In this document: piece after piece, positions 28,543 through 31,600 of the stretch
Numbering within the stretch: the stretch's first letter is position 1
Layout: each line of letters begins with the position of its first letter
NCBI GenBank assembly: GCA_963843685.1
Contig: CAWJLO010000010.1
Coordinates: 390,933 to 454,932, forward strand
Source of the DNA: an uncultured Chloroflexia bacterium
GTDB taxonomy: Bacteria > Chloroflexota > Dehalococcoidia > DSTF01 > JACRBR01
Direction of reading: 5' to 3'
Length of the DNA: 64,000 bases
The notes under the pieces: model-generated
Databases searched by the model: none
The model's input: the letters and a program-made list of their open reading frames with translations, nothing else
Told to the model about the DNA's origin: nothing
Program-made: the position numbers and the translations under genes

Positions 28543-31500
28543 CTACGGCTGCAGCACGATGGTGTACGCGTTGCCGACATCGGCATCGTTGCTCGCAGTC
28601 GCGGTATACGATCCGGTCGCTCCAGCGGCGGCCTTGTTAGCGTAGTTCCCTTCGATTGACTCGCCGCCAGCGTTAGGCGGGGAGCCGCTCGCGTCGTCAA
28701 ACGCCTCTGTCATGCCGCCGGGCGGCGTCCACGTCGCGGCGCTGCTGAACGCGAAGAACGTGATGACCATTGTGTTTGAGGTCGTCGTCGTCACGCTCGA
28801 CGTTGAGTGCGACGTGCTGTTGCCCGTGTTCTGGCCTCCCTTCACGTTCACAGGCGTGGTGGTATTCACATTCGAGAAGGTCATGATGCCGCCGGCGGCG
28901 CCCGCCGACGTCGAGAACGACCATGTGTAGCTCGAGGGCTCGCTGCCGCCGGCGACCTTGTAGTAAACGGCGAGCGAGTTCTGGTTGCTATTCGAGTTGT
29001 CGACTCGGCCGGCAAGCGTCCAGCCGGACGGCGCCGTGATCGTCGCCGTCTCCGGCCGGACCGCGATTGCCGCCACCATTACGTCGTTGGCCACCGTGCC
29101 CGCCGGCTTGCCAATCACAAGAGATCCGGAGTCGGCGTTCGCGGAGCTGCTCGACCGGAAAGCGATCGGGCTCGATGCAGGCTTGATCGAGACGCCGACG
29201 GTCGCCCAGCCGGTGGAGCCGGGCACGCCGGTCCACGACATGGTCGTGCTGGCTGAGCCAGACTCGGTGCTCGATGCGCCGCGGACGTGCGTCGTGCTGC
29301 CGCTGGACGATTGGCTCCAGCGCTGCGTCTGACCGCCGCCCTGGGTCACGCTGCTGGTGTCGTTTACTGCCAGCACGTCTTGCACGACCTGGTTCGATCC
29401 GCTGGATACGTTGACCGACGGCTGGTTTCCGCCGCCACTCGAGGTCGAACCGGAAGCGGTCGCCGGGGTGCCGAGCGGCGCCGACTGGCTGACGCCGGTC
29501 CACGAGGTAGCACCGCAGATAGCCCGCTCATTGGCCGAGAGCGTGACCACGACGTTCGCCGTGCCCGTCGTCGGCGCGACCAGGTACCACTGCTCCGAGC
29601 GGATGTTGCCGGAAGAGGTCGCCGCTCCGACCTTCGTGAGAGCCGTGCCACCGTACGTCGCAGATGACACGGTTGTCGCGCCGCTCACCTGTGTGAAGGA
29701 GATGCCAACGAGCAGCAGCCGGTTCGAGCCGGAGCCAACGGTGTGCGACCAGGTGAACGAGCTGGAATATGTTGGCGAGCAGTTCGTCACGGCGTCCGCC
29801 AGCACCGGTGCCGACAGCGTCGGTGTGGGCGTCGGGGTGAAGGTTGCCGTTGGCGTAGGTGTGAACGTCGGCGTTCGCGTAGGCGTCGGAGTGACTGTCG
29901 GCGTGTTCGTCGCGGTCGGCGTCGCCGTCGGCGTCAATGCGCCGGCGCACAGCTGGGTGTTCGGGATGATCTGCTTCGCCTGGCTGGCGCTGGACCACGA
30001 CAGCTGTGCGACCGCGCCGCCGCCGTTCTCGTAGTACTCCATCGTGACGTCGTATCTCACGCCTGCAGTCAGCGCGATTGTGCCGCTGTTCTCGGTGGAT
30101 GGGTGGTCCGTCCAGTTGTCCACGAGCTGAACGTTGTTCACCCACAAGCCGCACGCCGTCATCCGACTGCGTATAGAACGTGTATGTCTGCGAGTAGAGC
30201 GGGATCACTTGCCCCGTCCAGCGCACCGAGAACGTGTCTGTGCCGATGCTAGGATCCGGCGATCCCGTGCCCCAGTCGAAGTTCACCGTCGCATCGACGC
30301 GCGCCAGCTTGAAGGACGTGAAGTCCATATTGTCGTAATAGGCCCCGTTCAGTCCGTAGCTCACACACACAGGGGGGATTGTGGGCGTCGGTGAGGGCGT
30401 GTTCGTCTTTGTGGCCGTCGGGCTTGGTGTGTAGGTCGGCGTCGGCGTGGGCGTCAGAGCCCCGGCGCAGAGCTGCGACGACGGGATGATCTGCTTCGCC
30501 TGGCTGGCGCTGGACCACGACAGTTTGGCGACCGCCTGCCCGCCATTCTCGTAGTACTCCATCGTGACGTCGTACTTCACGCCGGCCGTTAGTGCGATCG
30601 TGCCACTGTTCTCGGTCGAGCCGTGATCGGTCCAGTTGTCGACGACCTGAACGTTGTTGACCCAGAGGCGCACGCCGTCATCCGACTGCGTGTAGAACGT
30701 GTAGGTCTGCGAGTACAACGGGATCACCTGCCCCGTCCAGCGCACCGAGAACGTGTCGGCGCCAATGCTGGGGTCCGGCGACCCGCCGGCCCAGTCGAAG
30801 TTCACGGTTGAGTCGACGCGATTGAGCACGAAGGCCGTAAAGTCGCTGTTGTCGTAGTACGCGCCGTTCAGTCCGTTGCTCACGCCTACCCCACACGGCG
30901 CAGGCGTCGCCGTGGCGGTGGGCGTGTTCGTGGACGTGTTTGTCGGAGTCGCGGTGTTAGTCGGCGTGTTCGTCGGCGTGTTCGTCTTCGTCGGCGTCGG
31001 CGTGTTGGTTCGCGTCGGTGTCGGAGTGTTGGTGAACGTGGGCGTAGAAGTGAACGTGTAGGTCGGCGTGATCGTCGGTGTGTTCGAAGCGGTCACCGTC
31101 GGGTACGCCGTTGGCGGAGCCGACGTCACGCGCATCGTGGCGGACTCGGTCGACGACTGCGTTCCGGAGGCGTTCGTCACCGTGAGCGTGTAGGTGACCG
31201 TGTCCGCCGACAACGATGCGGCAAAGCCATTCGCAACGAGATCCGTGGCAACGACGCGAGTGGAAGGCGTTCCGGCCACAGTCAGTGTCCGCTGGAGATC
31301 GGCGCCTACTTGCACGTAATGCGCGCTATACGCCACGCCGGTGCTGTAGTCGAGCCATTGCATCGTCACGTCGCCGTCGGCAACGGAGGCCAGCGACGTC
31401 ACGCCGCTCTGCGTGTCCTGGTTGAGCCAGAAGAGTGCGTTCCGCAGCTGCTCCGTCGCCCGCTGCTGGTCGCGTCCGGTCGTCGTGTTGCGGATGCTCG

Positions 31501-31600
31501 CGACCAGCGCCATGCCGGTGGTCGTCAGCACGCCGGCCGTGATGCCGATGGCGAGCACCAGCTCGACGAGACCGAAGCCACCTTCACCGCGGCGCCTCAC
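28543..31600 (-). CDS. Giant pilin-like protein with prepilin (class III) leader, two PA14 domains, Pro/Thr-rich linkers and a Ser/Thr/Gly-rich C-terminal region; apparent +1 frameshift near 30145-30150
   Basis: N-terminal VRRRGEGG|FGLVELVLAIGITAGV fits the G/F(+1)...E(+5) prepilin cleavage motif. Two copies of GLNGAYYDN...FSVRWTGQV...YTFYTQSDDGVRLWVNNVQ.VDNWTDH..STENSGTIALTAGV.YDVTMEYYENGG.A.LSWSS are PA14. Many PTPT linkers. The N-terminal part is in the frame of track ORF 29528..31600 and the C-terminal part in that of 28543..30162. GTGA coupling to the upstream minor pilin. Confidence 0.7.
29960..30900. repeat. Tandem ~520-bp direct repeat (two PA14-domain coding units, ~85% identical)
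   Basis: Example: 30001-30060 matches 30521-30580 (cagctgtgcgaccgcgcc.../cagtttggcgaccgcctgcc...). The frameshift lies at the repeat junction. Confidence 0.6.

Follow-up and report, generated by a model that had tools for sequence, protein, structure and literature searches.

The locus examined here raises the question of whether a giant gene lying among type IV pilus genes encodes a pilin that bears adhesive cargo and, if so, where on the pilus that cargo would be displayed. The gene lies on the minus strand, at 28543..31600, of a 64,000-nucleotide (nt) stretch of contig CAWJLO010000010.1 from an uncultured Chloroflexia bacterium (assembly GCA_963843685.1); this stretch, at its full length, is hereafter the window. 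The modules of the gene are collinear over this interval: a prepilin-type leader and pilin module, followed by two PA14 domains set between Pro/Thr-rich linkers, and a pair of C-terminal β-rich modules, which we term C1 and C2. These modules, with the C-terminal part given as a single β region, had been named in the same order in a preliminary description of this DNA made from the sequence alone, and all were recovered. We propose that the product is probably a modular minor pilin that binds polysaccharide and is displayed at the tip of a type IVa-like pilus in a soil Chloroflexota bacterium. This proposal builds on features that were computed directly, namely the motifs and fold of the pilin, its fusion to the cargo in one open reading frame (ORF), the synteny of the locus and the homology of the PA14 domains.

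The pilin module and its cargo

The protein begins with a short, basic leader with glycine at position -1, MRRRGEGG/FGLVE, where the slash marks the predicted cleavage site. It had been read as a class III leader, and its register is retained throughout the family: Gly-1 (G8) and Glu+5 (E13) are invariant in an alignment of 17 of 17 orthologous N-terminal modules (N-modules), while position +1 is occupied by F, L, V, I or M and is followed by a hydrophobic stretch. Loss of this register in orthologs, which would have spoken against a prepilin, was not seen. In the window protein the mature N-terminal segment FGLVELVLAIGITAGVL likewise presents Glu+5 and then a hydrophobic stretch, with a helix at 9-65 in the structural model. 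The predicted structure of the N-module displays the alpha-beta pilin fold and resembles the GspJ-type minor pilins (GspJ, EpsJ, XcpW). Its earlier designation as PilW-like is hence supported at the level of the fold (GspJ/PilW class) and not at that of the sequence family.

When 1.84 billion cluster representatives were searched with a profile of the module (E<=1e-3), 780 of them were recovered. Most of the 19 closest are long or fragmentary; the distant matches, for the most part 160-185 amino acids (aa) in length, span the whole module, and 7 of 10 tested distant homologs of ~170 aa pass the Pfam N_methyl model. Among the orthologs themselves, 15 of 17 show N_methyl matches at E<=5 (best 1.1e-5). 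Given the invariant Gly-1 and Glu+5, the predicted fold and the profile homology to ordinary pilins, the N-module belongs, as judged from sequence and model, to an ordinary family of minor pilins, of which it is a diverged representative with a predicted J-type fold.

The single ORF of ~1,019 aa that had been claimed is absent. Instead, two overlapping ORFs occupy the locus: one at 29528..31600 (690 aa, starting MRRRGEGGFGLVELVLAIGITAGVL) and another at 28543..30162. The 690-aa product leads through a Thr/Pro tract and a PA14 domain into another such tract and half of a further PA14 domain; only its residues 1-485 are real protein, the remaining 205 being out-of-frame, Arg-rich nonsense. Deletion of base 30145 yields a continuous translation of 1018 aa, in which Pfam identifies the two PA14 domains foreseen earlier (PF07691; 191.7 bits, E 7.6e-57, above the gathering score) and no other domain above threshold. 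The Cys pairs bracketing each PA14 domain fit an extracytoplasmic protein. The PTPT linkers of the earlier account are represented by three tracts of 60-70% Pro+Thr, and the Ser/Thr/Gly-rich C-terminal β region by 420 aa with 38-47% of these residues and an all-beta prediction. The coupling to a small minor pilin was also confirmed: the giant gene has a GTG start that shares bases with the TGA of the 122-aa pilin gene lying upstream of it (cgGTGAgg). Further, pilin module and PA14 lie in one uninterrupted ORF at several orthologous loci (L001/L003, L008, L013, L014 and the truncated L005), so that the prepilin leader and PA14 are fused and the PA14 region is not a separate downstream gene.

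Over 137 residues, PA14-1 shares 58% identity with PA14A of Clostridium thermocellum RsgI3 (PDB 6QE7; E 8.4e-87), and the Asp-cis-Asp (DcisD) motif appears as SDDG in both copies, aligned with TDDG of RsgI3 PA14A. The PA14 dyad of RsgI3 binds pectin, and its C. clariflavum counterpart RsgI4 binds xylan (PMC6852018); binding requires the DcisD calcium site, with the five-residue CBL2 setting specificity (PMC6852018). Ca2+-dependent glycan binding by the PA14 domains of the window protein is plausible on this basis, and the retained DcisD motif together with the close homology to pectin- and xylan-sensing dyads makes an environmental, probably plant-derived, polysaccharide the likely ligand. With the RsgI3 and RsgI4 dyads (PDB 6QE7, 6QDI; Grinberg 2019, PMC6852018) the giant protein shares this identity, the tandem PA14 arrangement, the DcisD motif and, as proposed here, an extracellular polysaccharide-binding role. 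In the RsgI proteins, however, the dyad sits on a transmembrane anti-sigma factor and serves signalling, whereas here it sits on a pilin, with a 35-aa Pro/Thr linker between the domains and a different specificity loop. The kinship with these clostridial biomass sensors leads to the testable idea that retractile pili grab plant polysaccharide.

These features can be assembled into the following mechanism. The N-terminal ~160 aa, by their motifs, predicted fold and homology, constitute a GspJ/PilW-class pilin module, whose leader would be cut after Gly-1 by a prepilin peptidase encoded elsewhere. The hydrophobic α1 helix and Glu+5 would then dock the module into an I-J-K-like priming complex, with the small upstream pilin as the I-like partner and the downstream protein lacking Glu+5 as the K-like cap, as gene order and N-termini suggest. 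As pili grow from tip to base, this complex would be kept at the tip. Three flexible Pro/Thr linkers, perhaps O-glycosylated by the GT-C glycosyltransferase of the operon (a speculative step), would hold the cargo off the filament: two disulfide-bracketed PA14 lectin domains and two β-sandwich modules. By PilB-driven extension and PilT-driven retraction the cell could thereby tether to, and pull on, polysaccharide particles. The carrier module is conserved across orthologous operons, with the cargo swapped module by module. The earlier suggestion of a pilus-incorporated, probably tip-located adhesin on a pilin scaffold has thus far held up, in so far as the Gly-1/Glu+5 register, the GspJ-like predicted fold and the fusion in orthologs argue for it.

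Frame, position and anchorage of the protein

Several observations weigh against this proposal. The Pfam N_methyl model (PF07963/IPR012902), suggested earlier as a check, stays below threshold for the giant protein (13.9 bits versus a cutoff of 21.2); no GspJ or PilW sequence family is matched in Pfam or NCBIfam, even at E<=5; and a hidden Markov model (HMM) of the pilin module retrieved nothing significant among PDB sequences. The I-like and K-like assignments of the neighbours are without structural or profile support, C1 and C2 are without informative structural relatives, and a GxGDxK motif scan found the catalytic domain of peptidase A24 nowhere in the window. The CBL2 loops, ENGGQ and ENGGG, match neither QHVRA (pectin) nor NNTGN (xylan), and hence do not indicate a particular sugar. 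Leader cleavage, pilus incorporation, complex formation, tip location, the ligand and linker glycosylation are all steps that we infer. Finally, the public gene call P0002 is 100% identical to the 690-aa product, so the deposit itself carries the frameshift, and independent sequence across 30145 was found neither by exact-sequence look-ups, nor in the near-identical contig L017, nor in a metagenome pattern scan. L017 ends short of the frameshift site and carries different modules there, and the pattern scan around the site matched only unrelated PA14 genes.

The frame switches at 30145/30146, inside PA14-2, where the window reads CGGCTTGTGGGTG and the first copy CGCCTCTGGGTC. Codon by codon, GGC GTG CGC CTC TGG GTC AAC AAC of copy 1 corresponds to GGC GTG CGG CTT G TGG GTG AAC AAC of copy 2, and the reading without the extra base is CGGCTGTGG. 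A tblastn search with an intact ortholog places the frame change at 30146/30147, and a frame plot of third-position G+C content (GC3) shows a phase change at ~30120, with GC3 staying high in the downstream frame. The same 28-mer, one base shorter, occurs in three unrelated metagenomic PA14 genes. Between the two PA14 copies, identity is 85% in amino acids and 81% in nucleotides; downstream of the shift they are separated by 14 synonymous and 7 non-synonymous differences, and upstream of it by 19 and 10, a very similar ratio. Because synonymous differences outnumber non-synonymous ones, purifying selection appears to have acted in the post-shift frame, and the protein encoded there is 64-90% identical to its homologs. 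Repeat collapse was rejected as an unlikely cause, given this nucleotide identity of only 81% and a longest exact match between the copies of 42 nt. The other overlapping ORF pairs flagged by the GC3 plot are separate genes and not frameshifts.

Three single-base +1 duplications fall within the window, in the giant gene, a glycosyltransferase gene and a nitronate monooxygenase gene, and the two that are unrelated to the giant gene favor a technical cause, i.e. assembly indel errors. Hence, an assembly indel is the most likely origin of the frameshift, the indirect evidence pointing to an artefact or to a change of very recent date, and the native product probably has 1018 aa; we advise annotation as a single coding sequence of ~1018 aa once the frameshift is resolved. 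A true pseudogene in this strain appears unlikely, though it retains real weight: a genuine 1-nt insertion would end the protein after one and a half PA14 domains and 205 out-of-frame residues, leaving a pilus that lacks its normal cargo or is defective. The shift is indeed present both in the given sequence and in P0002, adhesin genes are often phase-variable or decaying, and no independent sequence across the site turned up in L017, the metagenome scan or the look-ups. The recurrence of the same type of duplication in two unrelated genes within 64 kb points instead to a technical origin, and a decaying gene is also at odds with the high GC3, synonymous excess and homolog identity of the downstream frame; moreover, the site is neither a long homopolymer nor a repeat of the phase-variation type.

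The two other breaks are of comparable form. The glycosyltransferase gene (22208..24182, minus strand) has an extra C (CC to CCC) near 23964..23974, reading CTGCCCTGTC against CTGCCGGTC in the in-frame ortholog, which is intact at 670 aa. The nitronate monooxygenase gene (41349..42482, minus strand) is split near 42100 by an extra A (A to AA, in CCGAATC), with positions 25-90 of its Pfam profile in one frame and 105-331 in the other. Similar breaks are seen in L004, where the giant gene (8001..9800) shows a 275-aa ORF in 1.8 kb of gene space, and in L008, where pilA (4240..4630) is spread over two frames and looks frameshifted. From their MFD names, L004 and L008 presumably belong to the Microflora Danica long-read set.

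With respect to position, the protein could instead be a low-abundance subunit of the shaft, decorating the filament with lectin modules away from the tip. Glu+5 is present as in shaft subunits, the length and flexibility of the linkers might allow a bulky cargo to stick out sideways, and a location in the filament body has been considered possible where a flexible linker is present (Raynaud et al., PMC8179133). We nevertheless regard this as improbable: the predicted fold corresponds to the J subunit found in tip and priming complexes, the gene lies between an I-sized pilin and a K-like protein lacking Glu+5, and passage through the cell wall would be difficult with 850 aa of cargo on each shaft subunit. 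The order of the small pilin, the giant gene and the Glu+5-less protein is conserved; for the neighbours, no match to an I- or K-type family or structure was obtained.

Another scenario, which we hold to be hardly probable, is that of a membrane-anchored surface adhesin, whose N-terminal helix is an uncleaved signal-anchor that never enters a pilus. It would accommodate the sub-threshold N_methyl score, the missing A24 catalytic domain and the long Pro/Thr linkers, which are typical of wall-spanning surface proteins, but leaves unexplained why Gly-1 and Glu+5 are invariant and why the GspJ-like globular domain is conserved while the cargo varies. The start codon overlapping a minor-pilin stop codon, the fixed position of the gene between pilin genes in every operon and the profile homology to ordinary 170-aa pilins likewise argue for a pilin. 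As for the frame switch, a programmed +1 ribosomal frameshift controlling full-length synthesis has as its sole point that the full-length product requires a +1 shift in the given sequence, and is extremely improbable: the corresponding position is read in frame in orthologs and in paralogous PA14 genes, there is no conserved slippery or stall motif, and similar insertions affect the two unrelated genes of the window.

Cargo variation among orthologous loci

A scan that took one genome per species returned 15 related loci, 14 of which come from metagenome-assembled genomes of Chloroflexota (labelled Dehalococcoidia, Chloroflexia or Chloroflexota). The short L016 (contig JANMVV010000016.1) is binned as Vicinamibacteria (Acidobacteriota), possibly by mis-binning. 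Across these loci the N-modules are 52-68% identical, and the cargo-bearing proteins range from 411 to 2478 aa. There are several distinct architectures downstream of the pilin module: two PA14 domains with DUF7483 (833, 819 and 1057 aa); DUF7483 alone (590 and 515 aa); GYL alone, this being the name we give to a module of ~135 aa (411-434 aa); GYL with DUF7483 and C2 (962 aa); GYL with PA14 and DUF7483 (855 aa); more than 15 immunoglobulin (Ig)-like repeats with C2 (2478 aa; L010, 6559..13995); and two PA14 domains with C1 and C2, as in the window protein. In the L010 ortholog the same pilin module is followed by Ig-like repeats of ~90-100 aa each. To our knowledge, this protein far exceeds any known pilin in length.

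The closest comparison is provided by L017 (GCA_964418935.1, CAYQOC010000317.1), which is 98.5% identical, without gaps, to positions 26733..29169 of the window, a tract of 2.4 kb comprising C2 and the genes that lie downstream of it. On the upstream side of C2, PA14-2, linker 3 and C1 are replaced in L017 by a linker and GYL; similarity to the window then resumes in linker 2 (compared to 30469). The breakpoints coincide with module boundaries, which in this single comparison points to a recent cassette exchange between the two loci. By extension, it is conceivable, although we hold the idea only tentatively, that the J-type minor pilin is a conserved docking handle for a recombining cassette of PA14, DUF7483, GYL, Ig-like arrays, C1 and C2, that the DNA of the Pro/Thr linkers acts as the recombination joint, and that the linkers may be glycosylated by the GT-C enzyme of the operon. 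If so, strains ~98.5% identical would show different pilus tips, amounting to a natural, strain-level re-targeting of adhesion. One carrier with swapped cargo would also suit the study of pilus-tip re-targeting and of limits on cargo size.

Related systems and the surrounding operon

The combination had been thought to belong to no described family; this does not stand. Modular pilins are a described class of over 1,200 proteins with 264 architectures, and N_methyl with PA14 (IPR011658) is among the 15 most frequent of these (Raynaud et al. 2021, PMC8179133). The giant protein, too, joins a pilin module to C-terminal domains that are not pilus-specific (two PA14 domains, C1 and C2). Its architecture class is therefore already known, and it is a further, unannotated example of the modular pilins. 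Such proteins have been left unannotated because their N_methyl signature is weak, and as the motif is sub-threshold here, signature-based censuses miss whole families.

The closest precedent studied in detail is the pilus of Streptococcus sanguinis, in which a tip complex of the small I-like PilA and the modular pilins PilB (with a vWA domain) and PilC (a lectin) is responsible for priming of assembly and for adhesion (PMC8179133; Shahin 2023, PMC9934059); the mechanism proposed above is modelled on it and on the predicted J-type fold. Compared with PilB and PilC, in which short loops serve as linkers, the family considered here has long Pro/Thr tracts of 35-76 aa, a GspJ-like carrier, four cargo modules (with up to 2478 aa in L010) and cargo swapped between orthologous loci; its N_methyl signature is too weak for an InterPro-based census. 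GspJ/XcpW/EpsJ and PilW, the J subunits of the HIJK priming complex, have ~200 aa and no cargo, whereas the giant protein has cargo and no sequence-family match; an H-type (GspH/FimU) gene was not recognised at this locus. With PilY1/PilC of diderm type IV pili it shares the proposed role of a large, variable adhesin on a minor-pilin tip complex. PilY1, however, is no pilin, its defining feature being a C-terminal β-propeller, and a relationship was rejected since Pfam found the PilY1/PilC β-propeller domain neither in the pilin-based window protein nor in its orthologs. ComZ of Thermus thermophilus, with a DNA-binding β-solenoid inserted in the pilin fold, and the large minor pilins CofB and TcpB of type IVb systems are without PA14 domains or Pro/Thr linkers. 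What this family adds is a J-type carrier, long Pro/Thr linkers, multi-module cargo reaching 2478 aa, cargo exchange at a conserved locus even between near-identical strains, and presence in soil Chloroflexota that have not been cultured. With it, the modular-pilin idea reaches beyond a few cultured pathogens to bacteria that are abundant in soil and as yet uncultured.

The giant gene lies within a 13-kb minus-strand operon (Table 1) with the order pilA, pilB, pilC, small pilin, giant gene, the gene lacking Glu+5, 214-aa gene, pilM, PilN-sized gene, 119-aa gene, pilT and glycosyltransferase; this 12-gene order is kept in all loci with enough flank. The operon had been described as pilMNO/pilBC/pilT: PilB, PilC, PilM and PilT are recognizable, while PilN and PilO correspond to genes of fitting position and size without a Pfam match. 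The small pilin shows N_methyl matches in 12 of 12 orthologs (best E 2.3e-6) and a weak match to XpsI (GspI). For the 255-aa protein, the RG/QALP N-terminus without Glu+5 is invariant in the alignment of its orthologs; it has 137 homologs, all of ~240 aa and without Pfam domains or a name. Pfam scans of all members of this family gave noise only and there was no PDB match; HMMs of the small pilin and the 255-aa protein, run against PDB sequences, likewise returned nothing significant. The 119-aa gene with its lone A24 N-domain is kept at ~120 aa in most orthologous operons.

PilB passes the NCBIfam model of the c-di-GMP (cyclic di-GMP)-binding motif (41.4 bits against a cutoff of 38); with its MshEN domain, this suggests that pilus assembly may be under c-di-GMP control. 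A GT-C O-mannosyltransferase-like gene closes the operon in 9 loci (L001-L004, L008, L011, L013-L015). From gene context, one might speculate that this enzyme glycosylates the pilins or the Thr/Pro linkers.

Table 1. Modules of the giant gene and the surrounding operon genes, in window coordinates (slashes mark predicted prepilin cleavage sites)
Feature	Position	Strand	Basis
Giant gene, 5' part (aa 1-485): leader, pilin module, linker 1, PA14-1, linker 2, half of PA14-2	30146..31600	-	ORF list, joined translation, tblastn
Extra base (frameshift)	30145	-	window CGG CTT G TGG; expected CGG CTG TGG or CTT TGG
Giant gene, 3' part (aa 486-1018 and stop): rest of PA14-2, linker 3, C1, C2	28543..30144	-	ORF list, joined translation
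Class III-type leader MRRRGEGG, Gly-1; predicted mature N-terminus FGLVE, Glu+5	31577..31600	-	G8, E13 invariant in orthologs
Pilin module, aa 1-159, GspJ/PilW-like predicted fold	31124..31600	-	
Pro/Thr linker 1, aa 160-235 (76 aa), 64% P+T	30896..31123	-	degenerate 12/24-nt tandem repeats
PA14-1, aa 236-375; bracketed by Cys236 and Cys378; SDDG; CBL2 ENGGQ	30476..30895	-	Pfam, RsgI3 homology
Pro/Thr linker 2, aa 376-410 (35 aa), 60% P+T; 5' breakpoint of the L017 cargo swap	30371..30475	-	
PA14-2, aa 411-552; bracketed by Cys412 and Cys551; holds the frameshift; CBL2 ENGGG	29944..30370	-	Pfam
Pro/Thr linker 3, aa 553-598 (46 aa), 70% P+T	29806..29943	-	
C1 module, aa 599-808 (~210 aa), β-sandwich, 47% S+T+G, signature SFTWSHTVGSGSNRLLLVGIS	29176..29805	-	homologs, AlphaFold2 (AF2)
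C2 module, aa 811-1018 (~208 aa), confidently predicted β-sandwich, 38% S+T+G	28546..29169	-	
Major pilin candidate, G/FTLTELLIVVAILG (G/FTLTE), canonical	34969..35340	-	Pfam N_methyl 29.6 bits, above cutoff
PilB-type assembly ATPase, MshEN c-di-GMP-binding N-domain	33214..34914	-	
PilC/GspF platform protein	31962..33203	-	
Small minor pilin, 122 aa, SERG/VALVE; proposed GspI-like partner (putative I-type)	31597..31965	-	
Pilin-like protein, 255 aa, RG/QALP, without Glu+5; proposed GspK/PilX-like cap (putative K-type)	27773..28540	-	
214-aa protein, PilO-like by position only	27144..27788	-	synteny; no Pfam match
PilM	26254..27147	-	PF11104, E 2.5e-10
PilN-like by position only	25679..26257	-	synteny; no Pfam match
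119-aa protein, prepilin-peptidase N-domain alone (A24_N_bact)	25320..25679	-	E 3.4e-26
PilT-type retraction ATPase; true start probably near 25320	24223..25500	-	
GT-C glycosyltransferase (PMT_2/TMEM260-like), last operon gene, frameshifted	22208..24182	-	

The two C-terminal modules belong to no Pfam family and have no detectable relationship to each other. The AF2 model of C1 has moderate pLDDT (predicted local distance difference test) values and a disordered S/G-rich loop; C1 homologs exist, some of them tandemly duplicated. Both modules are widespread elsewhere, whether alone, in tandem or in a terminal position on RHS-repeat, FN3 and other surface proteins. Some C2 homologs bear the label 'MshQ' at JGI, which we treat with reserve. 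C2 itself, whose carriers include P0125, P0126, P0159, P0166 and P0194, is a widespread secreted domain that stands alone or in tandem, or else forms the C-terminus of RHS-repeat, FN3 and autotransporter-repeat proteins. Several C2 proteins have N-termini that we take to be like signal peptides of the TasA/SipW type.

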